The notes beneath the pieces are model-generated. The model did no database searches and was not told the DNA's origin. It was given only the letters and a program-made list of their open reading frames with translations. Shown here in pieces: positions 12,300 to 25,799 of a DNA stretch of 64,000 nt (position 1 is its first letter; every line of letters begins with the position of its first letter). The stretch is taken from sequence record OR776998; one strand, written 5' to 3'. The position numbers were made by a program, and so were the translations under genes. Origin of the DNA: Escherichia phage YX22.

Positions 12300-14501
12300 T
12301 TATATTTTGATTTCTTTCTCTGTCAGTTCGGCAGTGACCTTGTACTTCACCCCATCCACTTCAACTTCCATGGTGGACTCTTCCAGGTCGAGGTCGGTGA
12401 ACCAGCCATGGCCAGCAACGATACCATACACCACTTTAGACAGTGTCTTGTTCAGGGCGCGGACTTCGGTGATGGCCGCCTTGGCAGCAGCGTCGATCCA
12501 GTTTTCGATCAGATGTTTCTGTAAGGATTCAGGCACGGCAGTGATCATAGGAGACTTCACGAATGCTTCGTACTCCTTCAGCGCATTGGCGATGAACAAG
12601 TCACCAGCATTGAGTTTCTTGTTCTCGGCAATCTTCTTCTGTACCGCTGCGATAGACGGTAGAGATGAAGCGCCAGCGATCTTCACGTTCAGCTCACGGC
12701 TCATGTAGAAGTCGGTAGACTCTTTGGTCTCAGTCTTCGGTGAGAAGCCGTAATCGCGGATGCCGTAGGAGGACAGGAACTCGGCCGCCTCAGCGCCGTA
12801 CTGTACTGCCAAGCCTTTGGCGTTACCCTTACCAACCAGGGCGTCTCGATAGAACTTCAGCACCTTCTGCTTGCCTTTCAGGGCTTCCAGACGGACATTA
12901 TCCGCAAAGAACTGAGCAGCACTGATGTTCTTGACCATGGCGCGGTTGACCAGCGGTACGCTTTCCAGGTTCAGGACAAACACTTCCGGACCACCAAACA
13001 CGTGGACACCCATTTCGATCAGCTTATGCACGACTTCGATATCAGCCTTGAACGGCAGAGTCTTCACGTTAATGATACCGTCTTTGACGATGGTGTAGTT
13101 GCGCCACTGGAAAGTATCCAGTTCTTCAGGCAGACCGAACTTCTTCTGTGCGAATTCAGGCACAGCCACAGTACCGTGTTGAATTGTACGCACACTGATG
13201 TTCGGGCGCTCGGAGTTATAGACCAAATCGCTGATTGGCACAACACCCAGGTCGTTGGTAGGTTCGAACGTCGGGTTCCACTCTTCGTGTTCTGCCAGCT
13301 TGAGAGCCAGTGCTTTACGCTCTTCTTTGGACTGAGCGTTCGCGATCTGTTCTGCCAGCTTGTCTTCGGTGTCGTCGGTTTTCTGCACAGTACCGCGCCC
13401 GATGCTCTTATAGGAGAACATCGGATGCTTGGTAGCAACAGGCACACCAGCTTCAGCCAGGTACGTCAGCACATCAACGACGGTGGTCGCATCTTCAGCC
13501 GGAACCAGGTCATAGTCAATACCGTCAACGCCGCGCAGCTGGTCGTCAACAATCGCCTGAACCAGATCGTTCTTGATGTTGGAGTAGTCCTGCTTGGTGA
13601 AGCAGTTGCTGTACTGTTTGATGAAGCGAACGTCGCCCGTTTTCTTCAGTGCAGCCCACACCAGGTCCGCGTCCATGATGTGTACGCCGTAGAACGCCAG
13701 CACGTATGCCGCCTGGATGTCCGCCAGCGCATCAAGCTGGTCGATCATGTTAGGGTTTACAACCCACAGCTTGGTGACGCTCTCAGGGATGCTCACATAG
13801 CCGACCGGGTGAGAGTCATCGTCCTGCACCGCCAGTACTGTTGCCACACCGTTTTCGACGTAGATGGCATGGGTGTAGATGACTGGGACATCAACTTTCA
13901 CCTTCGGCACTGATGACTTCAGCACGTTTTCCAGTTCGGTCTGGTATTCGGTCTGACCTTCAGCAAACACGTGGGTCGCACCGGAGCGCTCAGACATCAG
14001 AGCTAGCAGTTCGCGGTTACAGTACCAGCCATATTCGATAAATGTAATGTTATCGAAAGCAAATGGCAGGGTCTCAGCAACCAGTAGAATTTCGTTGGTA
14101 CGCCAGCAGTTGTCATACCCGTCAGTCATGAACGCCAGGTTGTTGACATAGCCAGGTTTCTTCAGGTCACGCGCAGTATCCATCGCCAGTTTCAATGGCT
14201 CAACGAAACCAGTACAGCCGGATGGTTGCAGGAAACGGTCGATCAGTTTGTTCAGCTCGCTCAGGTCAGACGCAGCACTAACCTGGCGGCCAGCGAACAC
14301 AGTACCAAAGTCGCCTTTGGAGGAGAAATACAGAACGCTCACAGTGTCTTCCGGCTTCACCAGGGATGGCAGGTTCTCCTTCAGGTGCTTGCGGACTTCA
14401 GGGAGCGCACGGTACATAGAGCCGGAAATGTCTACAACGATTACATGGTTGGACGGAGCAGCAGTCGCAACCGCATTCTTAAATTCTAATGATTCAATCA
14501 T
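12300..14501 (-). CDS. von Willebrand factor A (vWA/MIDAS) domain protein, 733 aa
   Basis: ATG at 14501 (MIESLEFKNAV...); N-terminal vWA signature VIVVDISGSM (DxSxS MIDAS), G/T-containing loop, FMTDGYDN; roughly 500 aa C-terminal region of unknown fold. Confidence 0.7.
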   Translation of the reverse strand: MIESLEFKNAVATAAPSNHVIVVDISGSMYRALPEVRKHLKENLPSLVKPEDTVSVLYFSSKGDFGTVFAGRQVSAASDLSELNKLIDRFLQPSGCTGFVEPLKLAMDTARDLKKPGYVNNLAFMTDGYDNCWRTNEILLVAETLPFAFDNITFIEYGWYCNRELLALMSERSGATHVFAEGQTEYQTELENVLKSSVPKVKVDVPVIYTHAIYVENGVATVLAVQDDDSHPVGYVSIPESVTKLWVVNPNMIDQLDALADIQAAYVLAFYGVHIMDADLVWAALKKTGDVRFIKQYSNCFTKQDYSNIKNDLVQAIVDDQLRGVDGIDYDLVPAEDATTVVDVLTYLAEAGVPVATKHPMFSYKSIGRGTVQKTDDTEDKLAEQIANAQSKEERKALALKLAEHEEWNPTFEPTNDLGVVPISDLVYNSERPNISVRTIQHGTVAVPEFAQKKFGLPEELDTFQWRNYTIVKDGIINVKTLPFKADIEVVHKLIEMGVHVFGGPEVFVLNLESVPLVNRAMVKNISAAQFFADNVRLEALKGKQKVLKFYRDALVGKGNAKGLAVQYGAEAAEFLSSYGIRDYGFSPKTETKESTDFYMSRELNVKIAGASSLPSIAAVQKKIAENKKLNAGDLFIANALKEYEAFVKSPMITAVPESLQKHLIENWIDAAAKAAITEVRALNKTLSKVVYGIVAGHGWFTDLDLEESTMEVEVDGVKYKVTAELTEKEIKI

Positions 14502-14709
14502 TGTTCTCTTCGCCTTGTGCGTAAGGGTTAAGTTCAGACTCATCAGCGGCTTCGATGCGCGTCTTTACAGAGTCCAGCATATTGTTGATAAACTCACGAG
14601 ACTGCTCCAGCTGAGCCAAGAGCACATCCTTTGGAGCATAGTTCTGAATGCAAGCCGGAATACTTTCAGACGTCGCCTTCAGGTCGGTAAAACATTCTTT
14701 CAGTATCAT
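14494..14709 (-). CDS. Hypothetical small acidic protein
   Basis: 71 aa ORF with ATG start; first gene of the three-gene cassette; its stop lies 2 nt before the vWA start. Confidence 0.4.
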   Translation of the reverse strand: MILKECFTDLKATSESIPACIQNYAPKDVLLAQLEQSREFINNMLDSVKTRIEAADESELNPYAQGEENND

Positions 14710-14810: not shown

Positions 14811-16475
14811 TCAGATTTGTGAGGCCAGTTCTGTCACCAGAGGAGCGGCACGAACACGCGCATCTTCCAGAGTTTGGGTGTTGAAGAACTCGCCATCACG
14901 ATACACCAATTGGTGCTGGTTGTCGGCGTCTTGCACCTGATCAAAAGTGATACCGTCAACCAACACTAGTTTACCCTGAGGGTCTTTAATGACTTTAAGG
15001 AAACCACGCGCAGACTTTTTAGTCCCGCCTTTATCGGTCTTCGGCTCTTTGAAGATCTCACGGAATTCACCGTTCACTTTACCAGCCGTGGCTTTCACTG
15101 CTGTGCCAGTACTGTCACGGGTGTTCATCTGGTAGGTGTAGGAACCGATACCGAACACCGCGTTGATGGAAGCGAAGTTCCGGTCAGCCAGACGGCTAAA
15201 GATCTGGTCTTCACGCGCCAGGGTGATAGAATCACCGTAGATCAGGCCGATGTGCTCATCCAACAGGAAGTGCCCAGTTTCAGTCTGGGTGCCACCAAAG
15301 ATCTCCCACAGGCGCTGGATAGAGCCGACCGCTTCTGAACGGCTGATGATATTACGGTCATCTGCCATCAGAGAGTTGATCGTGCCTTCGCCTGTGATCA
15401 GGTGATAGGTGTTCGTCTCTTCGATGTGGATAACTTCGGTGCTGCTAGACACGCCGCTGATGTTCAGCGTAGCGCGGTCTTTGAACCCCTCGATGCGGTA
15501 GCCGCCGACGATGTGTACAGGGTCGCCCGAGTCAGGGCGGATCACGACTTTACCATTGCGCGCCATGATAATGTCTTTCAGGCGAGGGAGATAGTCGTCG
15601 ATGACCTGCCAGTAATCCCACGCATCAGACACGATGCTGACGATGCCATCAGGATACACGTCCTGCACCAGGCGGCGGAAGGTTTCGAATTCACCATCCT
15701 TCGTGCCCATACACATCACGGCGTGTTCGGTAGCCGCAACAGAACCAGCAACGACATAATCTTCGTCGATGTCTGCGCCATAATACTCTTCTACGAAGTC
15801 CAGGGCAGGGTTGGTATCGGTGCCTTTGAAGAACACCAGATGACCGGAACCGGAAGACGCGGCATCATGCCACCCGCTCATACCACGAAAGGAGAAGTCG
15901 TGGCCTTGGTAGTCGATGAACCAATGGTCCGGTGATACTCCCGTAGCGAGGGCAGCTTTCACCATCAGTGCCTTGTAATGCAGAGCGATGGTGGCGTTCG
16001 TCATCGGCTTCCAGATCTCAGAGCTGAACACAGTCTCCAGATAGTTGGTCAACCAGTAGAACTCCGGCAGGGTATTGAACATCACATACACCGGAACGCC
16101 ATACGGGCACATGGTGCCTTCAGGCAGCGCACGGACTTCGATAGGCAGGTAGCCGAGGTCATGCAGGGCTTCAATATGCTCTGTGCCGACGCGGCCTGGA
16201 CCCAGGACTTTGTTCATGCGACGGGCATACTTCTTCAGCACCTTGTCCTTCGGGCGCTGGAAGAATGCTTCGTCAAACAGTTCGTGGAACCAGGTCATGA
16301 AGCCCTGGATGCCCCAGACCACCACGCCGTTCTTCGGCAGGTGAGAGTTGAACAGTTTGTTAGAGCGCGGAGTTCCGTTGGAGAACACCAGCTCACTGCC
16401 TTCAGGGAACTGATAGATGTGCCCCGATTTGTAGAAGTCGATCGCATGGATTGGGTCTAAGTGGCGCATGCTCAT
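14811..16475 (-). CDS. Nicotinamide phosphoribosyltransferase family protein (NadV/NAMPT-like; candidate Namat of a NAD+ reconstitution pathway)
   Basis: 554 aa with NAMPT-like length and conserved blocks (FKGTDT, GSYTYQ, GLIYGDSIT); ATG start overlaps the stop of the Prs-like gene (ATGA). Confidence 0.8.
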   Translation of the reverse strand: MSMRHLDPIHAIDFYKSGHIYQFPEGSELVFSNGTPRSNKLFNSHLPKNGVVVWGIQGFMTWFHELFDEAFFQRPKDKVLKKYARRMNKVLGPGRVGTEHIEALHDLGYLPIEVRALPEGTMCPYGVPVYVMFNTLPEFYWLTNYLETVFSSEIWKPMTNATIALHYKALMVKAALATGVSPDHWFIDYQGHDFSFRGMSGWHDAASSGSGHLVFFKGTDTNPALDFVEEYYGADIDEDYVVAGSVAATEHAVMCMGTKDGEFETFRRLVQDVYPDGIVSIVSDAWDYWQVIDDYLPRLKDIIMARNGKVVIRPDSGDPVHIVGGYRIEGFKDRATLNISGVSSSTEVIHIEETNTYHLITGEGTINSLMADDRNIISRSEAVGSIQRLWEIFGGTQTETGHFLLDEHIGLIYGDSITLAREDQIFSRLADRNFASINAVFGIGSYTYQMNTRDSTGTAVKATAGKVNGEFREIFKEPKTDKGGTKKSARGFLKVIKDPQGKLVLVDGITFDQVQDADNQHQLVYRDGEFFNTQTLEDARVRAAPLVTELASQI

Positions 16476-17326
16476 TTTACACGTCCTGTATTTTCAGTTT
16501 TGAAAGGAAGCCCGTCGGCGGTGATGTTCTCCCACCAGACAGTGTCGGCATACACAGCATCATAGATCCCGTCGAAAACAGAGAGACCTTTGCTGAAGAT
16601 GCCATGGGTAACGAAGAGCGTCATGTGCTTAGGCTTGTGCTTCTGAAGCTCTTTGCCTAACTCAACGAACGTGCGCCCACCGTCGCAGATATCATCGACC
16701 ACCACCAGATAGCGGTCTTTGATCAGTTCAGGGTTCGTAATACTCACCCCAATGATCTCACCAGTCTTGGTGTCACGGTTCTTGTGACCGTAGACAACAG
16801 GAACACCGTCCAACGACAGACTGAGGGCTTCGGTCTTCTTAGCCGCGCCGCCGTCAGGGGCTACCAACACAGCGTTGTTCCCACGGATGAACCAGCCCAG
16901 ATACTGACGCACGATGTAATCTTGCGGGACAACATGGACGTTGTTGATCAGAGAAGACACAACATGGCTGTGAGGATCTTTGATCGCCACGCGGTCAAAG
17001 TTCATGCTATTGATGAACTCAGCCGCCCACTTCACAGACAGAGGCTCACCGAAGTCACAATGGCGGTCCTGGCGAGCATACGGGAAGTAAGGGATATACG
17101 CATGGAATGTCGTCAGACGGTCCACGTTACTCAGACCACGAACGGCGTTTACCAGAAGCGCCAGCTCAATGAAGTCGGCTGATGATTTGATGTGAGCATC
17201 AATCACCACGTTCTGAACGTGGCCGATAGGGATACCAGACTTTTGGATCTTAATATGTTCCTCACCACCTGGGAAGGTGAAGTGTTTGTAGAACACATCT
17301 TGGTCGTTCAATTTCAAACGAAACAT
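16472..17326 (-). CDS. Ribose-phosphate pyrophosphokinase (Prs) family protein (candidate Adps of a NAD+ reconstitution pathway)
   Basis: 284 aa; PRPP-binding signature LVVVDDICDGGRTF and Prs-like N-terminal half; translationally coupled to the NAMPT-like gene. Confidence 0.8.
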   Translation of the reverse strand: MFRLKLNDQDVFYKHFTFPGGEEHIKIQKSGIPIGHVQNVVIDAHIKSSADFIELALLVNAVRGLSNVDRLTTFHAYIPYFPYARQDRHCDFGEPLSVKWAAEFINSMNFDRVAIKDPHSHVVSSLINNVHVVPQDYIVRQYLGWFIRGNNAVLVAPDGGAAKKTEALSLSLDGVPVVYGHKNRDTKTGEIIGVSITNPELIKDRYLVVVDDICDGGRTFVELGKELQKHKPKHMTLFVTHGIFSKGLSVFDGIYDAVYADTVWWENITADGLPFKTENTGRVK

Positions 17327-17675: not shown

Positions 17676-17981
17676 TCACTTAAACGAGTCAACGATGGAT
17701 GTAAGAATTTCGGGGGTGGGTTTGGCGTCTTGTGGTTCACGGAAACCCACCTTTGCGATGCGGCCCAAGATATTGTACACTTCGCGCGGAAGGGTGTCTA
17801 CGACCGTGTCCGACATGAACGCCACGTCTTCTTGGATGGCGTTGTATTCGGCCAGTTTAGCCAGTTCTGATCCTACCAGGGACTTCAGCTTTTGCAATGG
17901 GTCGTTGCAATAGTTGAGACGGTTGCAGTTGGTGAGCGCCTGAGTTAGATTCTCAAACGCTTCTTGTATTTCCTTTGACAT
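17676..17981 (-). CDS. Hypothetical protein
   Basis: Internal ATG at 17981 (MSKEIQEAFENL...), 101 aa. Confidence 0.4.
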   Translation of the reverse strand: MSKEIQEAFENLTQALTNCNRLNYCNDPLQKLKSLVGSELAKLAEYNAIQEDVAFMSDTVVDTLPREVYNILGRIAKVGFREPQDAKPTPEILTSIVDSFK

Positions 17982-18363
17982 TGATATGTGCCTCGTATTG
18001 TTGACAGACAACAACTACTTTACGGCACATGTCGATATCGAACAAGCCAATATGACACTCTTTCTTAGTGATGCCCAGCTTATGCGCCAGCCAACTATAA
18101 GCGTCGCTCCTGCTCCTCTCTCCGCTTTTCCACAATGGGTCAAACGATCTATGGGCTTTTTGCTTCTCGGCACGGAGAGCGGCATTCGCCATCCTTCCCA
18201 GAGGCTGCCTGCCGTCGCCATGGGCATGGCAACCGACACGGGCATCACACGGGGTGCAAACCCAGAACCTCAGATTGCGGAGGTCAGGGCGATGAGGGTA
18301 GAGAACATCACCACCGACGAATTCGGCTGGGAGGCCACAGTAATCACATATAACAGGTTTCAT
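17953..18363 (-). CDS. Hypothetical zinc-finger protein
   Basis: Internal ATG at 18363 (MKPVICDYCG...WVCTPCDARVGCHAHG...): two CxxC pairs plus His; 136 aa. Confidence 0.45.
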   Translation of the reverse strand: MKPVICDYCGLPAEFVGGDVLYPHRPDLRNLRFWVCTPCDARVGCHAHGDGRQPLGRMANAALRAEKQKAHRSFDPLWKSGERSRSDAYSWLAHKLGITKKECHIGLFDIDMCRKVVVVCQQYEAHINVKGNTRSV

Positions 18364-18370
18364 ATTCTTT

Positions 18371-18399
18371 GTCCAAAAGAAACCCCGCACATGGCGGGG
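18371..18399 (-). terminator. Rho-independent terminator
   Basis: Stem CCCCGC/GCGGGG with 5-nt loop; T-run on the minus strand downstream (TTTCTTTTGG). Confidence 0.55.
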
Positions 18400-18423
18400 T
18401 TGCTCAGGCCGAGGCCAACAGGG

Positions 18424-18795
18424 TTATTTCAGCAGCGCTTCCAGTTCTTCAACAGATTTGCTTTCCAGCTCTTGCTGTTTCTTACGCTGGATCAGCTCCA
18501 GGATAATCTGGTTGTTCGCCTTACGCTCTGCCGCTTCTCTGCTGTCGTCACGTTCTTTCAGCTTAACGCCGATGATGTGCTTGACAACGTCGAAGCGCAG
18601 CTGCAGTTCGGAGTCAACGTTGCTTTTGGTGCCAATGAAATCTTCTTCATCGGTTTCTGCTGCTTTCACCTGACGGCTCAGACCTTTCGCCATTTCGTTC
18701 AGGGCAGTCAGGCTCAGGTCCCAGACCTGCTCAACAGACAGCAGACCTTTGTTAGACTCGAAGCGCAGTTTCAGACGGGTTGCTTTATCAAACAT
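18424..18795 (-). CDS. Hypothetical protein
   Basis: 123 aa, ATG start, charged helical composition. Confidence 0.45.
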   Translation of the reverse strand: MFDKATRLKLRFESNKGLLSVEQVWDLSLTALNEMAKGLSRQVKAAETDEEDFIGTKSNVDSELQLRFDVVKHIIGVKLKERDDSREAAERKANNQIILELIQRKKQQELESKSVEELEALLK

Positions 18796-18839
18796 TTTAC
18801 TATCCTCAATGATGAATGGGTCACAATTTCAAATCAGGT

Positions 18840-20858
18840 TTAGAACACAACTTTCACAGTGCGGTTGAACGAACCGCTCACCTTCACGAACACGTGGTTG
18901 CGTTGGGTGGTAGAGAATCCCAGACCGGACAGCTGCTCAGTGCTTGGCTGTACTTTAATCTTACCACCTAACATTTCAAAAACCTTGCGGTGTTTATCAA
19001 GTTCCGGCTTCAGATATTCGTTATAGAAACCACGGGTGCCGACAGGGTTAGCACAACCTTCCAGGATGAAGAACACGTGCTTGTTGCCAGTCTGCTCGCC
19101 GTCCCAATGGTTTGGTGAGTTCAGAACCAGCTGTACCTTCTGGAAGACGGAGGTCTTGATGCCCCAGATTTCCTGAGAGCGAGCGTCGTCTTTCAGGGTA
19201 GAACGGATGTCTACCACTTGTCCAGCGCGGACATCAATCACAACAGCCAGAGTGCGATCTTTGTGCTTCAGGCCAGGATGCGAAAAACGCTTGGTCTGGC
19301 CTTTGTATTCAACTTCGATTTCGAAACCAACGTCACAGGTTTCACGCTTGTTGAAGTTAGTGACATAGAACTCGTACAGACCATCACGCAGCTTGCGTTC
19401 ATCGCTGAAGAAGATGTTCTCCACCGGGCGGCGGTTGGGATCAATGCCGTCCATACCGTTCATGTCGATATCCAGGGTTGCGCCAGTTGCCGAACGACGG
19501 TTGTGATAATACACGTGGTTGTGAAGAGGATCGTTCAGGCTCAGATCCAGATCGTCGTTGTTATGCCAAGCCAGTGACACACGGAGGAAGCTGTCGACAT
19601 TGCCGCCTGCGGTCTTCACGCGCTCTTTGATGGAGTCGGCCACTTCGCCATTGTACGACCAGCTGAAGCCGTTGTTCCACTTGAACAGGTTAGGAGCGCC
19701 TGCGGTGGCCGGAGCGATCAGGGACATCAGGTTGCCAATGTGAGAGTTTTCGACCAGCACTTCCAGGGAATGCGCCTTTGGCAACACGTTGGTCAGGAAG
19801 TCGTCGATCGTGATCTCTTCAACCTTGTCCAGGGACTTGGTCGGAGTCTTCACTTCAGACGCCAGCTGAGCAAACGGGTCCATCTTCTTCTGAGCTGCTA
19901 GGTCGGCGAACAGAACGTTGTTGATGGTCAGATCGTCATACACGGCATAACGGCGACCCAGTGAATCAGTCAGACCCAGCGCTTCGACTTCTTTCTGCGC
20001 GTTTTCAATCATCGACTTCGTGACCAGCGCGGTTGGGCGCTTGTAGTTCGTCGGAGCGACTTTGGCTTCAAAGGACTTCACGGCGGTTTCCAGATCCCGA
20101 CCTTCATTGAGGTCTACCAGCAGAGAGCCAATCACGGTATTACGAATGCCGTGAGGGGTATGACCGTTTGCACGGTAGCCAGTGCGCCAAGCCCACAGAG
20201 CGCGTTTCTCTTCTGCAGTTTGTTCGTACAGGGTCTTGTTCACCACGAACGCCTGCACTGCCGCTTTGTGCTCTTCACCGCGATACAGAGAATTCTGGTC
20301 AATCAATTCCAGAACGATTTCAGCCGATTCCAGAGACAGTTCACGCAGGCCGCGCTCAAACACTTCAATCGCCTGGCGGATTTCACCCTTCTTAGAAGCG
20401 ATGGTATCTGCCCGCAGAACATAGCTGCTCAGCAGGTCGGTGTGGAAGTGGTTGTAGGTGCGGACAATACCGTCTTTCATTTCGTGATTCGACCCAACAC
20501 CAACTTTCTTGGTGTCGTTGAAGTACACATCGACGATTGCGTGCTGCTTAACATATGCTGACAGCGCCGCAGCGACAACGTCGTATTCGTTACCCAGCTG
20601 AATGTTATCCCAGATAGAGATCACGTTCAGGTCGGAGTCGATGGTGACCACACCGCCGATATTACGGATGAATTGTTTACAGCAGGTACAGTCGTGCTCG
20701 GTACGCTCACGATAAAGCGGGTTAGTGCCAGCAGGGAAAGAAGACAGATACAGATCCCACAGAGCATCTTTATCGATGTTGGTCATGAACAGACCAGTTG
20801 CTGACATGGCCAGCACATTGTTGTTAACAGCTACTGCGAAGGGCTTAAATTCTGACAT
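18840..20858 (-). CDS. Hypothetical large protein (672 aa), function unassigned
   Basis: Long minus-strand ORF with ATG start and protein-like composition; the matching plus-strand ORFs look like antisense artefacts. No motif assigned with confidence. Confidence 0.6.
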   Translation of the reverse strand: MSEFKPFAVAVNNNVLAMSATGLFMTNIDKDALWDLYLSSFPAGTNPLYRERTEHDCTCCKQFIRNIGGVVTIDSDLNVISIWDNIQLGNEYDVVAAALSAYVKQHAIVDVYFNDTKKVGVGSNHEMKDGIVRTYNHFHTDLLSSYVLRADTIASKKGEIRQAIEVFERGLRELSLESAEIVLELIDQNSLYRGEEHKAAVQAFVVNKTLYEQTAEEKRALWAWRTGYRANGHTPHGIRNTVIGSLLVDLNEGRDLETAVKSFEAKVAPTNYKRPTALVTKSMIENAQKEVEALGLTDSLGRRYAVYDDLTINNVLFADLAAQKKMDPFAQLASEVKTPTKSLDKVEEITIDDFLTNVLPKAHSLEVLVENSHIGNLMSLIAPATAGAPNLFKWNNGFSWSYNGEVADSIKERVKTAGGNVDSFLRVSLAWHNNDDLDLSLNDPLHNHVYYHNRRSATGATLDIDMNGMDGIDPNRRPVENIFFSDERKLRDGLYEFYVTNFNKRETCDVGFEIEVEYKGQTKRFSHPGLKHKDRTLAVVIDVRAGQVVDIRSTLKDDARSQEIWGIKTSVFQKVQLVLNSPNHWDGEQTGNKHVFFILEGCANPVGTRGFYNEYLKPELDKHRKVFEMLGGKIKVQPSTEQLSGLGFSTTQRNHVFVKVSGSFNRTVKVVF

Positions 20859-20973
20859 GGTGTAGTCTTCCTGTTTCAGTTCAAATGTGCGCCCCGTTTG
20901 CCAGGGCGCTTCGTTTAAGTGAGGTCAATAATACGTTGAAAAGAGTTATTGAAGAACGAAGTAAAGGGAATCT

Positions 20974-22194
20974 TTATTCAGGTTTCTTCAAACGGTCCAG
21001 CAAATTGACGGAACCACGTTTGAGCACGACTTCATCACAGCGCTTTTTGTATTCCCCACCGCCGTCATATCCAACCTTCCCGCGCGGTTTTTTACCTTTC
21101 TGTATGGCCTCTACACAACGGGTGTACTTGCTCAGTTCACAGAACATGTTCTCCAGCTGCATAACGTTCATGCACTGATCTACAGGCTCTTCGGCCGACC
21201 AGAATTTCTCGCGAACATACCCATATTGGGAGTACACTGCGTCCTGGTTGTCCCGTAGCCAGAAGATGCATTCTTCGTGGGTCATGCCATCTTTGTCCTG
21301 GAACATCAGATCAATCCCTGCGCGACAGCCTGGTCCAGCAACCGTGAAGTGGTTCTCACTGAAAGGATATCCAGGAATGTACGTGAAATCAACCCAGATC
21401 TGGTAGGCCAGGAATGGACCAAGCCCTTCGATGTCGTCATACATGCGCTGGTATACTTCCAGAGGAGTACCAAGGCGCAGCAAGTCATGGAAATAGTTTG
21501 GATACTTGTTGGCGAATGCCTTCAGGGAACGGATAACACGCATTGGCATGTACGGCTCCCAGCCTTCTATGGTGTAGAAGTCCGGCTCTGCTTCAGCAAT
21601 AGCCTTGGCTTCCTTATAATCCATGTTCTGGGTCGAACCGTCCTTACAGATCAGGTTCACCATCATCCCACCGAAGCGCTGCTCTTTGTGGTTGACAACC
21701 AACTCAGGGAAAGCCAGGCATTGCTTCAGACCACCTGTGTTGAAGGCATTGGTGAATACTTTACCGCCGTCGGCCTCGAACTTCTGAAGTCGTTCGCGGG
21801 TTGCGTCAAGGTTGATCTTGGCGAATTCTTTGATCGTCATCGCGCCGCCGATAGCCTGAATTGGATCCCAGAGGTTGAACATGCGAAACATCACGCAGTT
21901 GAACATCTTGTCGGCCATACCCAGAGCATCGTTGTTGACGATGTTGTTGATCAGGTTGAGAGACTGCCTGTCGTGCTCTCTCCGGACGTTACAGAACTTG
22001 ACCTGCCGTAATATGGAATTATCAGTCCAAGGAGCAGGAAGGCGCTGGACGTCCTTCTTGACGTGGATCTGATAACGATCGCGCATCCATTCGTAAGACA
22101 GGCAGGTATGGGTCGGACTGAGAACCGGTTTGGCCGACTTTATCTTTTCTTCACGGACACCGCAGTACGGGACGTCTAGGGCTTTATCTTTCAT
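20974..22194 (-). CDS. Hypothetical protein (406 aa), function unassigned
   Basis: Long ORF with ATG start; no confident motif; possibly a nucleotide or DNA-modification enzyme (speculative). Confidence 0.55.
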   Translation of the reverse strand: MKDKALDVPYCGVREEKIKSAKPVLSPTHTCLSYEWMRDRYQIHVKKDVQRLPAPWTDNSILRQVKFCNVRREHDRQSLNLINNIVNNDALGMADKMFNCVMFRMFNLWDPIQAIGGAMTIKEFAKINLDATRERLQKFEADGGKVFTNAFNTGGLKQCLAFPELVVNHKEQRFGGMMVNLICKDGSTQNMDYKEAKAIAEAEPDFYTIEGWEPYMPMRVIRSLKAFANKYPNYFHDLLRLGTPLEVYQRMYDDIEGLGPFLAYQIWVDFTYIPGYPFSENHFTVAGPGCRAGIDLMFQDKDGMTHEECIFWLRDNQDAVYSQYGYVREKFWSAEEPVDQCMNVMQLENMFCELSKYTRCVEAIQKGKKPRGKVGYDGGGEYKKRCDEVVLKRGSVNLLDRLKKPE

Positions 22195-22262
22195 GGTATC
22201 CTCTTAAAATACGAAAACAGAGGCCATTATAGCCTCTGTTGTTTAGTGAACAACTGTATATC

Positions 22263-23135
22263 TTAATCGATACGGGTCAATTGGGTGATAGATGATTGCA
22301 CTGGGCTGGCCACATAGATACGGACGTTGGCTTTCCATTCACCCCAGATCAACGGCAGAGTTGGGAAGTTGTCTTCATTGAAAACAAACACGGGAATGTA
22401 GCTCTCGACTGTTTCGCCAGAGAACGCCTGGAAGCCCATCTTGGTGTATCCCACGATCTCGTCAATAAAATCGAACGGAGCGAAGGCAACACCAGCGTGT
22501 TCGTTAGAACCGAGCTGGCCTGGAATGGCCGTACCCGTCAGAATGATTTCAGTGATCTGGCGCTTAGGCTCGGCGGTCAACATATCAGAGAAGTCAGGCT
22601 CTTTGAAGGTTGCCATGTTCTTCAGGAACTTGCCAGCCGGGTATTCTTTGCCGTCGACGGTGATGGTGTCCACCACTTTGATGCACGCCTGAGGGAATTC
22701 CCCTTCGATGCGTAGACTTTCGCGTGGGAATCCTTTGTTGTAGTAGTAATCCAGTGCTGGCACAACTTCACCTTCATTGCGAATGAACTTGCTCATGTTA
22801 GAGGCATACACGCGCTGTAAGCATTCGTCGCCGTCGAAACCAGCAATATGAGCCAAACCGTCGTTGACTGTTGTGATGTCGCCCTGGGCATCCATGATCT
22901 GGCGCATAATGTCTTTGATGTCGACAACAACAGGTTCTTTCAGGACTCGCGGAGATGCAGTGAACTCAATTTTCACCTCGTGGTCGAAATACGCCGCTTC
23001 CAGCAGTTCACGGGTTTCTTCCAGCACCAGTTTCGCCTGATTGCGGATCTTACCAAAGTCGGGCGATGTGACGTCGCCCTTTGCATTACCGAAAGCCAGA
23101 TTCAGATTCACGTTCTTGGAAAATGTAGTTGTCAT
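22263..23135 (-). CDS. Hypothetical protein (290 aa)
   Basis: ORF with ATG start; acidic helical N-terminus (LVLEETRELLEAAYFDHE). Confidence 0.5.
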   Translation of the reverse strand: MTTTFSKNVNLNLAFGNAKGDVTSPDFGKIRNQAKLVLEETRELLEAAYFDHEVKIEFTASPRVLKEPVVVDIKDIMRQIMDAQGDITTVNDGLAHIAGFDGDECLQRVYASNMSKFIRNEGEVVPALDYYYNKGFPRESLRIEGEFPQACIKVVDTITVDGKEYPAGKFLKNMATFKEPDFSDMLTAEPKRQITEIILTGTAIPGQLGSNEHAGVAFAPFDFIDEIVGYTKMGFQAFSGETVESYIPVFVFNEDNFPTLPLIWGEWKANVRIYVASPVQSSITQLTRID

Positions 23136-23151
23136 GATTTAGCGACTCCAG

Positions 23152-23616
23152 TTATTCGCTTTTTGCCTTCGTAGGCCGGATGATGTATTTTGGAACCAGT
23201 TTCCATTCAGGAACCTGATCGTGTTTAACCACTTTAATGCGAGACATATCGGCTGCTTCAGTGACCTGCTCAGGATGAATGACCTTCACCATGTTCCACT
23301 GCTCCAGCAGCTTGATGATTCGGTTCATCCTCAGGACATCTTCGCGGTTAAATCCGTTGTAATGCCCGTCCAGCATAAATAGATGCTTGAAGTGGACGAT
23401 ATAATACTTGCCACACTTATGAAGAATATGGCAAGTCTGATACAGAGTATTCGGCTCTTGGCGCGTGTTTACCCCAATTCGACTCAGTGTTTCCTTGATC
23501 CCCAGGAATATACCTGGCCGATCTTGGTTCAATTGAACTTCAACCATACAATCAACGATGCTGGCCTCATCGTTGACTGCTGAAATATTCAATATGTCTA
23601 GCGTATTACGCGCCAT
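23152..23616 (-). CDS. regA: RegA translational repressor
   Basis: 154 aa; LYQTCHILHKCGKYYIVHFKHLFMLDG and C-terminal EWKLVPKYI match T4 RegA (LYQSCHILQKKGLYYIVHFKEMLRMDG ... EWKLVPKYTIGN); lies downstream of 62 as in T4. Confidence 0.9.
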   Translation of the reverse strand: MARNTLDILNISAVNDEASIVDCMVEVQLNQDRPGIFLGIKETLSRIGVNTRQEPNTLYQTCHILHKCGKYYIVHFKHLFMLDGHYNGFNREDVLRMNRIIKLLEQWNMVKVIHPEQVTEAADMSRIKVVKHDQVPEWKLVPKYIIRPTKAKSE

Positions 23617-23645
23617 GACTCATTCCCCTTTTACAATAGTTTGAA

Positions 23646-24068
23646 CTATTTAGCCTTGCGCGGTTTCGCTTTGGCGTTCAGCTCAGTGCGTCTCATCTTC
23701 TCGCGTATCTCGGCCAGGACTTCCTTCGGCAAGAAACGGACGTACTCCGATGCCTTCTCCATGCTGATGTAGAAGTACTCTGAGAGTAACTTCACGTCAG
23801 GATCAATCGGACCTTTCTTAGACCATTTGTCGTAGCGTTTCCGAGCCGGAATGGTGTAAAAGGCATATGACCATTGCATCCATGGAGTGATAGCATGTAG
23901 CTTATTCATCTGTTGCGCAGCCACTAGAGTGTCTTTGCTCTGAGCTAAACCACGCCGCGTCATAAACGGGTCGAATCCTTTCAACACTTCTGGGTCATCA
24001 GACCGCAAAAGGTTTTCTTTGCTGCTGTTCAGAGCAGCCAGGTAATCGAACAATCCAAGGGCGGCCAT
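23646..24068 (-). CDS. 62: Clamp-loader small subunit gp62
   Basis: Internal ATG at 24068 (MAALGLFDY...); PARKRYDKWSKK matches T4 gp62 PRGKRYGKWAK; sits between 44 and regA. Confidence 0.75.
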   Translation of the reverse strand: MAALGLFDYLAALNSSKENLLRSDDPEVLKGFDPFMTRRGLAQSKDTLVAAQQMNKLHAITPWMQWSYAFYTIPARKRYDKWSKKGPIDPDVKLLSEYFYISMEKASEYVRFLPKEVLAEIREKMRRTELNAKAKPRKAK

Positions 24069-24072
24069 AATA

Positions 24073-25062
24073 TCACTTCCACTTGATGTTGAGCATGACA
24101 TTGGTCAGGAAAAACACAGCATGCAGCCAGACATCGCCGACTTGACGGTGTTCAATCTGAGACTGACCACATACGCATACTAGATCAGGGATAGACTCAT
24201 TCTGAACCAACATTTGCTTCTCTTTATCCTGTGGTACACAGAACTGGAAGAAGCGGGAATAGAAGTCTTCAGTGATATAGTTCTGGTTGTCGGTCACCCA
24301 CTGCTTCATCCCAGCCCAGTCATTATCCTTCAACATATTCACCAACATGCCCATATCGGCCGATTTTAACACAGCCAGTGCACGTTCGTCGATCTTGCCG
24401 TAAGTGGTGACGTTATCCTGTAGAACACCCATGATGCGGCGGTTATCAGGGAAATGGCGCTTGACAATAGCAGCCAACACAGGAGGGTCATACTCAACAC
24501 CTTCGCAGCGAAGGATTTCAGCACAGCGGCGCATGAACTGAAGTTTGACCTCATCAGCCTCGGTCTCATTCCAGATAAAGTCGATTTCACGGCAACGAGA
24601 GCGCAGAGGTTCGTTCACACGTTGCTTGGCGTTGGTGGTCAAGATGAATGAACAGTTCTTGGAGACCTTCTCCACAATACCCTTCAGCGACTCCTGTGCC
24701 GCCATAGACAGACGCTCTACTTCGTCGAGGATAACGACTTTGCGGCCACCGAATACGCTCACACCAGTAGAGTACTGAATCACGCGGTCACGGATAACGT
24801 CGATGCTGTTGTCCAGGGATGCGTTGATCATCAGTGGTTGCTTACAACCGATTTCATTACACACGGCCAGGGCGGAGGTAGTCTTGCCAGTACCAGGCTG
24901 AGGGGAGTAGAACAGCATAGACGGGATGTTGCCGTTGCCGCTGGTGATGTAGCCATGGATTTTAGCGCGGACGTCTTGAGGGATGATAATCTCGTCCAGG
25001 TTGTCAGGGCGGAAACGGTTCTCCCAGGCGTACTGGTCTTTTACAATCGTGATATTAGACAT
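24073..25062 (-). CDS. 44: Clamp-loader large subunit gp44 (AAA+ ATPase)
   Basis: 329 aa; Walker A SPQPGTGKTTSALAV; Walker B ILDEVE; its ATG overlaps the stop of the upstream homing endonuclease gene by 1 nt. Confidence 0.9.
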   Translation of the reverse strand: MSNITIVKDQYAWENRFRPDNLDEIIIPQDVRAKIHGYITSGNGNIPSMLFYSPQPGTGKTTSALAVCNEIGCKQPLMINASLDNSIDVIRDRVIQYSTGVSVFGGRKVVILDEVERLSMAAQESLKGIVEKVSKNCSFILTTNAKQRVNEPLRSRCREIDFIWNETEADEVKLQFMRRCAEILRCEGVEYDPPVLAAIVKRHFPDNRRIMGVLQDNVTTYGKIDERALAVLKSADMGMLVNMLKDNDWAGMKQWVTDNQNYITEDFYSRFFQFCVPQDKEKQMLVQNESIPDLVCVCGQSQIEHRQVGDVWLHAVFFLTNVMLNIKWK

Positions 25063-25718
25063 TATGTATTTCCATGATATAGTTTACAGAACAGAACCCA
25101 AGCGTCGTCATCATACGGGTTCCAGCCCTCTTTGAATTTGTTTAACATACTCGTTGCGGTGTTCTCTTTGATAGAGAACAAACGGGCAATTCTATGGCAC
25201 CCATCACCAGTAGAAACCCAGTGATCATACACTACCCCAGCCTTTAACCACATCGGTCTGGTGTTGTGTAGCAGCGCAGCCCCGGTGTCCCAGGGTTTTA
25301 TTCCTGCGGCGGGGTGGCTTTTACCAGTTCTTCCGTGCATGGGATGAAGATTCCCAGACTTACCCTTCAACCAACTCGAGACACCAACTCGGTGATGTTT
25401 GGGTCCCGCTGACCTACCGTTGGCGATACCACAACCCAGTGGCTGAAATGATTTGTTTAAACATTTTGGGTGATCAATGTTCTCACTAATCAACTGCTGC
25501 TCTCTCCAATATGCTTCTTCTGGGGAGTCAAACAGTTCTACGAATTCTACATCAAAGAAATCAGAACCTTTCTTAGATATGATTTCCTTGACTGTTTGTG
25601 AAGAAGTGAAATATGAAGTGAACAATTGTAAAGGATGTGCACCCAATTTCGTTCTAGAACCAAAATAGAAAGAACCATCCTTCCCTAACAAATGATATAC
25701 AAACGGTTGGTTCCTCAT
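25062..25718 (-). CDS. GIY-YIG family homing endonuclease (Seg-like), free-standing between genes 45 and 44
   Basis: ATG at 25718 preceded by GAGG (5-nt spacer); N-terminal PFVYHLLGKDGSFYFGSRT (GIY...YIG module); C-terminal basic G/K/H-rich repeats resembling NUMOD-like DNA-binding motifs; T4 has rpbA at this position. Confidence 0.65.
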   Translation of the reverse strand: MRNQPFVYHLLGKDGSFYFGSRTKLGAHPLQLFTSYFTSSQTVKEIISKKGSDFFDVEFVELFDSPEEAYWREQQLISENIDHPKCLNKSFQPLGCGIANGRSAGPKHHRVGVSSWLKGKSGNLHPMHGRTGKSHPAAGIKPWDTGAALLHNTRPMWLKAGVVYDHWVSTGDGCHRIARLFSIKENTATSMLNKFKEGWNPYDDDAWVLFCKLYHGNT

Positions 25719-25751
25719 TTCAGCCTCGTGTAGAAGAATCATTTCAAATAG

Positions 25752-25770
25752 GCGGGGAACGCCCCCGCCC
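25752..25770 (-). terminator. Hairpin between gene 45 and the homing endonuclease gene
   Basis: Stem GGCGGGG/CCCCGCC with 5-nt loop, followed on the minus strand by TATTTGAAATG; a TGcTATAAT-like -10 sequence sits just upstream on the minus strand (about 25775-25786). Confidence 0.5.
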
Positions 25771-25799
25771 ACACATTATAGCATCAGGCTGGAGATTGA

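Follow-up and report, generated by a model that had tools for sequence, protein, structure and literature searches.

Gene Organization Downstream of regA

This analysis concerns three open reading frames (ORFs) that lie downstream of regA in Escherichia phage YX22 (sequence record OR776998). The stretch analyzed, hereafter the window, is 64,000 nucleotides (64 kb) long. ORF3 (22263-23135, 290 amino acids (aa)), ORF2 (20974-22194, 406 aa) and ORF1 (18840-20858, 672 aa) follow one another on the minus strand. ORF2 belongs to clade 1 of the alpha-glutamyl/putrescinyl thymine pyrophosphorylases (aGPT-Pplases), the HMUDK_hel family, and is the ortholog of gp160 of Salmonella phage ViI. ORF3 has a predicted MazG/DR2231-like all-alpha deoxynucleoside triphosphate (dNTP) pyrophosphohydrolase core with a C-terminal extension, and ORF1 is a DUF8224 (PF26675) protein. 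A 123-aa gene downstream of ORF1 (18424-18795, minus strand, phrog_2018) is called the partner gene here. The interval is probably composed of two unrelated units: unit A (ORF3 and ORF2), serving DNA hypermodification and the nucleotide pool, and unit B (ORF1 and its partner), an independent cassette.

An earlier note on this DNA had described three conserved-looking ORFs of these sizes between an NAD+ operon and regA, and had observed that no polymerase gene occupies the position after regA. These observations hold. The three ORFs have hundreds to thousands of homologs each, and thus they are real genes, not chance ORFs. The regA gene (PF01818) lies at 23152-23616 on the minus strand, and the pair of NAPRTase-family and PRPS-like genes lies at 14811-17326. 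In T4, the polymerase gene comes after regA. The tblastn search with the ViI polymerase as a query (E 1e-3) found no DNA polymerase homolog in the window, while the positive control worked, and no polymerase family or fold was found for ORF1, ORF2 or ORF3. The ViI polymerase gene is located at 145-148 kb, ~55 kb distant, where it adjoins the genes for the kinase gp243 and the transferase gp247 and other hypermodification genes.

At positions 18400-23700, the DNA shares 97% identity with Escherichia phages PC3, PH4 and A221 and ~94% with Shigella phage Ag3 and Salmonella phage SKML-39. Based on these identities, the window is assigned to an Agtrevirus-type member of Ackermannviridae (ViI-like phages), which is not T4-like in the narrow sense. 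The genes preceding ORF3 on the same strand are those for the gp45 sliding clamp, a homing-endonuclease-like ORF, the clamp loader (gp44 and gp62) and regA. Downstream of ORF1 are the 123-aa ORF, a DUF3268 zinc-finger ORF, two small ORFs, the PRPS-like gene and the NAPRTase-family gene. The starts of ORF1 and ORF2 were both read, and a Shine-Dalgarno-like sequence is present upstream of each start codon. The base composition of the region is unremarkable.

ORF2 Is a Clade 1 aGPT-Pplase

ORF2 matches the Pfam family PF18723 ("5-hmdU DNA kinase, helical domain", HMUDK_hel, where 5-hmdU is 5-hydroxymethyl-dU) with a score of 272.4 bits against a gathering cut-off of 25. The match covers profile positions 6-280 out of 281, and ORF2 homologs bear the precomputed PF18723 label. 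This family was first named alpha-glutamyl/putrescinyl thymine pyrophosphorylase clade 1, and that name is still seen on some GenBank records of the ORF2 ortholog. The family representatives are mostly 320-350 aa long, and ORF2 has an extra segment of ~50 residues (~160-215). One representative (P0361) is fused to a 5-hmdU DNA kinase domain.

ORF2 is 83% identical over the full length (407 aa aligned) to Vi01_130c of ViI (gp160, YP_004327501). The gene order in ViI is the same as in the window: regA, a MazG-like gene (orf00161), Vi01_130c (orf00160), a split DUF8224 gene (orf00158) and orf00155. The gp numbers of Lee et al. are the ViI orf numbers, as the YP accessions of gp226, gp243 and gp247 match orf00226, orf00243 and orf00247. 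Given the sequence identity, the identical gene order and the agreement between gp and orf numbers, ORF2 is identified as the ortholog of ViI gp160 ("aG/PT-PPlase1").

In ViI, ~40% of thymidine (T) is replaced by 5-(2-aminoethoxy)methyl-dU (5-NeOmdU), which is made from 5-hmdU after replication. gp160 is one of five ViI proteins whose mixed lysates turned 5-hmdU DNA into 5-NeOmdU (PMC5889632). The individual steps were assigned later: the kinases are gp67 and gp243, gp247 is a clade 2 serine:DNA transferase, gp226 is a pyridoxal phosphate (PLP)-dependent decarboxylase, and gp160 was given no role (PMC8989533). None of the genes for the 5-hmdU DNA kinases, the dUMP hydroxymethylase, the clade 2 transferase (Pplase2) and the PLP decarboxylase was found within the window. 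In ViI, the kinase, hydroxymethylase and transferase genes are at 140-152 kb, and the same three are reported for Agtrevirus SW16-7 (PMC10458263).

In Acinetobacter phage SH-Ab 15599, a distant relative within Ackermannviridae (locus L004, 3922-5251), a clade 2 Pplase (diamine:DNA transferase) is encoded directly after regA, and the pair of MazG-like and clade 1 genes is not there. This placement suggests that the site downstream of regA repeatedly houses hypermodification genes in Ackermannviridae.

The predicted model of ORF2 has a helix-hairpin-helix DNA-glycosylase-like fold. The motif E348-N349-M-F-C352 (21139-21153, minus strand) contains a putative metal-binding Glu and a putative nucleophilic Cys. 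E348, N349, C352 and E353 are invariant among 44 sequences with identity down to 42%, as are many other polar residues of ORF2. In the clade 2 enzyme PUGT, E243 and T244 bind the metal, and C247 is the nucleophile that attacks C6 (PMC11472151). The clade 2 local sequence N-I-Q-E-V-E-T-x-L-C and the ORF2 sequence N-V-M-Q-L-E-N-M-F-C are alike. When a 128-sequence clade 1 profile was compared with four clade 2 sequences by hhalign, the best local alignment placed C352 on PUGT C247 and E348 on E243, with a non-significant E-value of 0.039. Because of this E-value, the equivalence of C352 and E348 to the catalytic Cys and Glu of clade 2 is regarded as likely but unproven. The search of PDB sequences with the ORF2 profile returned no match.

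ORF3 Resembles MazG-Like Pyrophosphohydrolases

Among the PHROGs families, ORF3 matches phrog_2144 "MazG-like pyrophosphatase" (E 8.7e-132) and phrog_671 (E 4.6e-20). The homolog search returned mostly near-identical proteins, and among them a protein of Escherichia phage YX22 matches ORF3 at 100% identity. The core of ORF3 (~residues 1-190) shows 33-53% identity to proteins encoded by Vibrio Ackermannviridae, by Pseudomonas phages and by N4-like phages of Pectobacterium and Klebsiella. Its last ~100 residues are found only in enterobacterial Ackermannviridae proteins among the sequences aligned.

In an alignment of 11 sequences with identity down to 37%, E40 and E43 of E39-E40-T-R-E43 are invariant; in D82-A-Q-G-D86, D86 is invariant and D82 is conserved at 90% or more. 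The motifs S-N-M-S-K-F and G-K-F-L-K...P-D-F are also invariant or near-invariant. The profile of the 11 members detected a sole solved relative in PDB, DR2231 of Deinococcus radiodurans, at a marginal level (E 0.012-0.3), and the search of PDB with the single ORF3 sequence gave no match. It is plausible from the family match and these residues that ORF3 is a MazG/DR2231-like all-alpha dNTP pyrophosphohydrolase.

A MazG-like gene is also observed downstream of regA in Vibrio phage 207E48.1, with a chaperonin gene between them, and in Pseudomonas phage Cygsa01, with one opposite-strand gene between them. The replication genes of Cygsa01 are annotated by similarity to phiW-14.

gp18 of Acinetobacter phage SH-Ab 15599 is a bifunctional dTTPase/dUTPase of an hmU-hypermodifying Ackermannviridae phage (PMC13458397). 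It is a fusion of dNMP-kinase and dUTPase_2 domains. The orthology of ORF3 to gp18 was considered and rejected, as the two proteins do not align in BLASTP. Homologs of the two gp18 domains are encoded by adjacent genes elsewhere in enterobacterial Ackermannviridae genomes, including Agtrevirus Gloob. Since gp18 is unlike ORF3 and its domain homologs are located elsewhere in related genomes, ORF3 would be a second pyrophosphatase.

ORF1 Is a DUF8224 Protein with a TerD-Like Insert

ORF1 has over 5,300 homologs in a large protein database. The full-length homologs listed, from 99% down to 48% identity, all carry the precomputed PF26675 label, and phrog_1735 (unknown function) matches ORF1 end to end. 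No match was found for ORF1 in the local copy of Pfam, NCBIfam or PADLOC. Full-length relatives with 40-52% identity are encoded by a range of unrelated phages, Vequintavirinae-like ones included: Cronobacter phages CR8 and CR9, Klebsiella phage KB57, Acinetobacter phage ABPH49, Caulobacter phiCbK-like siphoviruses, Ralstonia phage RSL1, Bacillus Bastille-like phages, a Clostridioides phage, N4-like Stenotrophomonas and Vibrio phages, and jumbo phages. Of the annotated records listed, one has another product name and the rest are named hypothetical protein. We found no publication on DUF8224, and nothing relevant was obtained for TerD in combination with Ackermannviridae.

The AlphaFold2 model of ORF1 has a predicted local distance difference test (pLDDT) score of 82 and a predicted template modeling (pTM) score of 0.48. 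In this model, residues ~420-550 (19209-19601, minus strand) adopt the beta-sandwich fold of TerD, with the invariant motifs DDLD, LDxDxN and VEN. No Pfam match to TerD (PF02342) was observed among 42 full-length ORF1 members or 16 domain sequences, and the beta-sandwich had no TerD match in PDB by sequence or profile. The recurring weak Pfam matches in these scans were DUF2135 and, for the isolated domain, EMP24/GOLD. In searches of PDB sequences, neither the single ORF1 sequence nor a profile of the full family nor a sub-profile of the beta-sandwich retrieved a meaningful match, and the Foldseek search of the model against PDB gave just generic beta-sandwich noise. As neither sequence nor hidden Markov model (HMM) comparison matches TerD, the insert is described as TerD-like in fold only and is not classified as a member of TerD.

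The 547-aa "Phage protein" of Xanthomonas phage Bosa (CAA2409764) aligns to residues 24-400 and 565-666 of ORF1, without the sandwich. Since this homolog wholly lacks the sandwich, the sandwich is considered to be an insert in a conserved ORF1 core. The motif H55-D-C57-T-C59-C60 (20679-20696, minus strand) is in the core. C57 and C60 are invariant in 42 sequences, and H-x-C-x-C-C is retained in the distant Bosa homolog; this pattern makes a metal site possible.

ORF1 and Its Partner Constitute a Two-Gene Cassette

Homologs of the partner gene are located directly downstream of DUF8224 genes in ViI, Caulobacter phage CcrKarma, Stenotrophomonas phage Pokken, Bacillus phage PBC6 and two metagenomic contigs. 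We scanned 80 DUF8224 loci from IMG/VR with the partner HMM, 79 of which had room for the partner. All 79 contained a match on the same strand within 1 kb. Judged by offsets, the partner is directly downstream in ~73 loci, 0.5-0.8 kb downstream in 3 and directly upstream in 3. This linkage criterion was derived in the present analysis and has no published definition.

Neighboring ORFs were clustered for 64 loci (L034-L097), all with 56% or less identity to ORF1. Only DUF8224 and the partner (~125-140 aa) recur in all 64 of these divergent loci. The next most frequent families are DNA ligase (9 of 64 loci) and DNA polymerase (8 of 64), and no third conserved component was detected by this clustering. 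A link of DUF8224 to tRNA or RNA repair was considered, since tRNA genes are present in Pokken, and ligase and polynucleotide kinase genes are present in Bosa and in locus L001. It was rejected because it is inconsistent across loci, and no tRNA genes are present in the window.

The association with the unit A genes is seen only in Ackermannviridae-like loci. Pplase1 and MazG-like genes are found within 6 kb of DUF8224 in all 17 loci at 60% or higher identity. Below 60% identity, either gene is found within 6 kb in only one of 63 DUF8224 loci, and the exception, Serratia phage phiMAM1, is itself a member of Ackermannviridae. In Dickeya phage RC-2014 (locus L017, 3501-4449), DUF8224 is reduced to three short fragments and the partner is gone, while ORF2 and ORF3 are intact. 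The cassette is therefore dispensable in at least one Ackermannviridae lineage. The ViI copy (locus L003, NC_015296, 85300-87319) is annotated as two overlapping ORFs, due to a frameshift or a sequencing error. Disrupted copies of DUF8224 appear to be common, because fragments constitute separate PHROG families (phrog_23228, 25920, 21434 and 38165).

The strict linkage, the co-occurrence in one of 63 loci, and the decay in RC-2014 with ORF2 and ORF3 retained all separate ORF1 and its partner from hypermodification. By its distribution, the pair of ORF1 and the 123-aa gene is a discrete, mobile and dispensable two-gene unit, unrelated to the hypermodification pathway.

Hairpins and Neighboring Genes

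The ORF3-ORF2 intergenic region (22195-22262) contains a terminator-like hairpin with an 11-bp stem, followed by a T-rich tract (22216-22240, minus strand). It is conserved in ViI, PC3, Gloob, CAU_YEP3 and RC-2014. A second, small hairpin follows, whose 3' arm holds the Shine-Dalgarno sequence of ORF2 (GTATTTT-AAG-AGGATAC). Agtrevirus, ViI and Dickeya phages share both hairpins, which suggests that the Pplase1 gene is controlled by transcriptional attenuation and/or at the level of translation. A GC-rich hairpin is located between ORF2 and ORF1 (20889-20909, minus strand). Folding and comparison of this hairpin in the window, ViI, PC3 and Gloob showed a conserved stem and a differing loop. After the partner gene, there is an intrinsic-terminator-like hairpin (18381-18401, minus strand), which consists of AACCCCGC...GCGGGGTT and then TCTTTTGG. 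It is conserved in ViI and PC3, and a terminator is annotated after the partner in CcrKarma, too. The counts of promoter and terminator consensus sequences in the region are not above the shuffled expectation.

Directly after the cassette terminator, a DUF3268 zinc-finger protein of 145 aa is encoded (17953-18390, minus strand; PF11672, E 8.5e-38), and it is conserved in ViI and PC3. The NAD+ operon of the earlier note (14811-17326, minus strand) encodes a NAPRTase-family protein of 554 aa and a PRPS-like protein of 284 aa. This architecture matches NARP1 (Namat and Adps), the NAD+ reconstitution pathway countering NAD+-depleting defenses. The NARP1-like module is accessory: it is present with 94-99% identity in three loci (L019, L020 and L021), absent from PC3, ViI and L018, and represented by fragments in L031 and RC-2014.

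The gene at 12300-14543 (minus strand) encodes a protein of 747 aa that begins with a von Willebrand factor A domain. This protein is conserved in all Ackermannviridae genomes compared, with 82-98% identity to proteins of ViI, PC3, RC-2014 and others, and its gene is followed by an acyl carrier protein gene in PC3, ViI and RC-2014. Between gp45 and gp44, there is a 236-aa ORF (25062-25772, minus strand) with no Pfam match, whose PC3 counterpart is a "hypothetical protein". In related phages, homing endonucleases are annotated at this position or close to it. The region from regA to DUF8224 is likewise considered a hotspot of homing endonucleases, because extra insertions are seen in AV101, RPN242, Marshall, Maynard and CAU_YEP3.

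Functional Interpretation

The earlier note stated that none of the three ORFs could be assigned. This is right for inspection by eye, and profiles go further: Pfam assigns ORF2 and PHROGs assigns ORF3. Its guess of DNA modification or nucleotide metabolism is correct for ORF2 at the family level and plausible for ORF3, but it fails for ORF1, whose cassette occurs in unrelated phages. The comparison with known hypermodification genes that it proposed yielded the ortholog ViI gp160, at 83% identity and with the same synteny. The structural comparison was productive in part, giving the helix-hairpin-helix glycosylase fold of ORF2 and the TerD-like insert of ORF1 and leaving the rest of ORF1 unmatched.

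Unit A lies downstream of the genes for the clamp, the clamp loader and RegA and shares their strand; it is likely to take part in the 5-hmdU-based hypermodification biology of Ackermannviridae. ORF3 most likely would produce a monophosphate by hydrolyzing a pyrimidine dNTP (dUTP and/or dTTP or dCTP). This activity would shape the pool feeding the dUMP hydroxymethylase. By analogy with the solved clade 2 enzymes, ORF2 would flip 5-(phospho)hydroxymethyl-dU from DNA, and Cys352, beside Glu348, would attack C6 for chemistry at C5. Unit B, composed of ORF1 and the downstream 123-aa gene and ending at the terminator, appears self-contained and is present in many unrelated large phages.

Several points weigh against parts of this interpretation. 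For ORF2, the hhalign alignment of the clade 1 and clade 2 motifs is not statistically significant, and an earlier run with a two-sequence clade 2 alignment paired an unrelated segment. The ViI pathway was reconstituted from purified kinase, gp247 and gp226, and a need for gp160 is not reported in the available part of the source (PMC8989533). For ORF3, neither Pfam nor NCBIfam gave any match, including PF08761, and there is no BLASTP similarity to gp18 of phage 15599. The ORF3 core also occurs in phages for which we know of no report of hmU DNA. For ORF1, the pTM score makes the domain arrangement uncertain, and no convincing structural match was obtained for the N-terminal 400 and the C-terminal 110 residues.

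Pfam calls the ORF2 domain the helical domain of a kinase, and on this account a non-catalytic DNA-binding role is possible. ORF2 might direct the 5-hmdU DNA kinase to its targets, for instance by choosing the hmU residues to be phosphorylated and so setting the ~40% level. The fusion of the domain to the kinase in SP10 gp186 (PMC5889632), as in P0361, is consistent with this. So is the biochemistry of PMC8989533, where the SP10 kinase domain is active alone and the purified ViI system works without gp160. However, the invariant Glu-Asn-x-x-Cys resembles the catalytic motif of clade 2, and the invariant polar residues are more than pure binding usually needs. We regard this role as a real but lesser possibility.

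For the cassette, our best guess, offered tentatively, is a metal-dependent accessory enzyme or binding protein acting on a universal nucleic-acid- or nucleotide-related target. A universal target is suggested by the identity of 40-50% across very different hosts and by the occasional replication, ligase and nucleotide-metabolism neighbors. The main alternative is a counter-defense or host-takeover module. It is a serious one, because the accessory region around the cassette is variable, with the NARP1-like NAD+ reconstitution pair two to three genes away; some Agtreviruses have this pair, and in others it is missing or decayed. The cassette is dispensable in RC-2014, lies among small early-type genes in other phages and is spread over unrelated phage families, as such a module might be. 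Against this, homologs from Firmicutes phages and Proteobacteria phages are 40-50% identical, which suggests a universal target rather than a host-specific defense protein. In addition, no match to PADLOC or a known anti-defense family was found, and a protein of 672 aa is, to our knowledge, large beside known signal-sponge proteins. Overall, a counter-defense function is rather unlikely.

It is a still less probable possibility that ORF2 is an enzyme that reduces the exocyclic methylene intermediate and thereby turns phosphorylated 5-hmdU in DNA into thymidine. Such an activity would explain why ~60% of T is unmodified, and PMC5889632 describes the route from hmdU to T in these phages as unknown. 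The fold, and probably the Cys/Glu motif, are as in clade 2, whose chemistry proceeds through a Cys-C6 adduct and an exocyclic methylene intermediate (PMC11472151). In PMC8989533, borohydride converts this intermediate to thymidine, as shown with M6 gp51 acting on phosphorylated 5-hmdU (5-PmdU), and the genes of the two clades are frequently paired paralogs. On the other side, ORF2 has no recognizable NAD(P)H or folate binding domain.

The reading of the earlier note, a single thymidine-hypermodification cluster of all three ORFs, is largely refuted, and we consider it very improbable. The ORFs are adjacent and co-oriented, ORF2 is in a hypermodification family, and the order is the same in all 17 Ackermannviridae-like loci sampled. 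However, DUF8224 occurs in N4-like, Caulobacter phiCbK-like, Bacillus and Vequintavirinae-like phages, and outside close relatives the unit A genes accompany it in the single locus noted above. ORF1 and its partner decayed in RC-2014 while ORF2 and ORF3 remain, and the known pathway genes are elsewhere in the genome. That ORF1 is a DNA-directed RNA polymerase is hardly credible, as its sole basis is the GenBank product name of GLOOB_123 in Shigella phage Gloob.

ORF2 and ORF3 are already known as database members of the published Ackermannviridae hypermodification and nucleotide-pool set, and ORF1 is a catalogued DUF; the main gain for ORF2 and ORF3 is the correction of the label "unassigned". 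What is new is the link of clade 1 to the solved clade 2 enzymes by fold and, probably, by motif, and the definition of the DUF8224-partner cassette. Thymidine hypermodification in Ackermannviridae resists many restriction enzymes in vitro. Clade 1 aGPT-Pplases have no assigned reaction in the literature, and ORF2, with its putative Cys/Glu motif, is a candidate for the conversion of hmdU to T or for the control of the ~40% level.

The DUF8224-partner pair is among the more widespread and highly conserved phage gene pairs without function or literature. As a strict, dispensable and modification-independent two-gene unit, it is a clean start for genetics. A bolder proposal, about which we are doubtful, is that DUF8224 and its 125-140-aa partner represent an undescribed two-component phage system. 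It would have over 5,000 members in phages of Gram-negative and Gram-positive hosts, a fold without a solved relative, a TerD-like and possibly Ca2+-binding insert, and a new host- or nucleic-acid-directed function; separately, ORF2 would be the 5-hmdU-to-T enzyme.

Comparison with Known Systems

The insert of ORF1 has no sequence or HMM similarity to TerD proteins (Klebsiella TerD, PDB 2KXT; Streptomyces SCO6318, PDB 2QZ7). Unlike TerD, the sandwich in ORF1 interrupts a larger protein whose remaining fold has no match, and the gene is not in a ter operon. The Bosa protein and its relatives in PaMx74-like and jumbo phages are homologous to the ORF1 core, including H-x-C-x-C-C. The Bosa protein differs from ORF1 in having neither the TerD-like insert nor a detectable partner gene. 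The Bosa gene is flanked by ribonucleotide reductase genes and by polynucleotide kinase and DNA ligase genes.

The marginal alignment between ORF3 and DR2231, a dUTP-specific pyrophosphatase (dUTPase), spans the N-[LM]-S-K motif and two helices, one with EExxE and the other, acidic, with D/ExxD. Unlike DR2231, ORF3 has an insert (~residues 50-75) and a 100-aa C-terminal domain. gp18 of phage 15599 has the general role that is proposed for ORF3, that of an all-alpha pyrophosphatase shaping the nucleotide pool of an hmU-hypermodifying phage. In 15599, unlike in the window, the gene after regA is Pplase2, not the MazG-like gene.

The clade 2 aGPT-Pplases (ViI gp247, M6 gp51, PaMx11 gp46/PUGT (PDB 8Z2M) and YuA Pplase2 (PDB 25QC)) are amino-acid:DNA transferases. 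They are only ~12% identical to ORF2, with no significant similarity at the HMM level. ORF2 is like them in fold and probably in the Cys/Glu motif, for which the match is non-significant. It differs in its ~50-residue insert and in the Asn that replaces the metal-binding Thr of clade 2. The closest known system is ViI gp160, which shows no meaningful difference from ORF2 and occupies the same position in the order regA, MazG-like gene, gp160, DUF8224 and partner.

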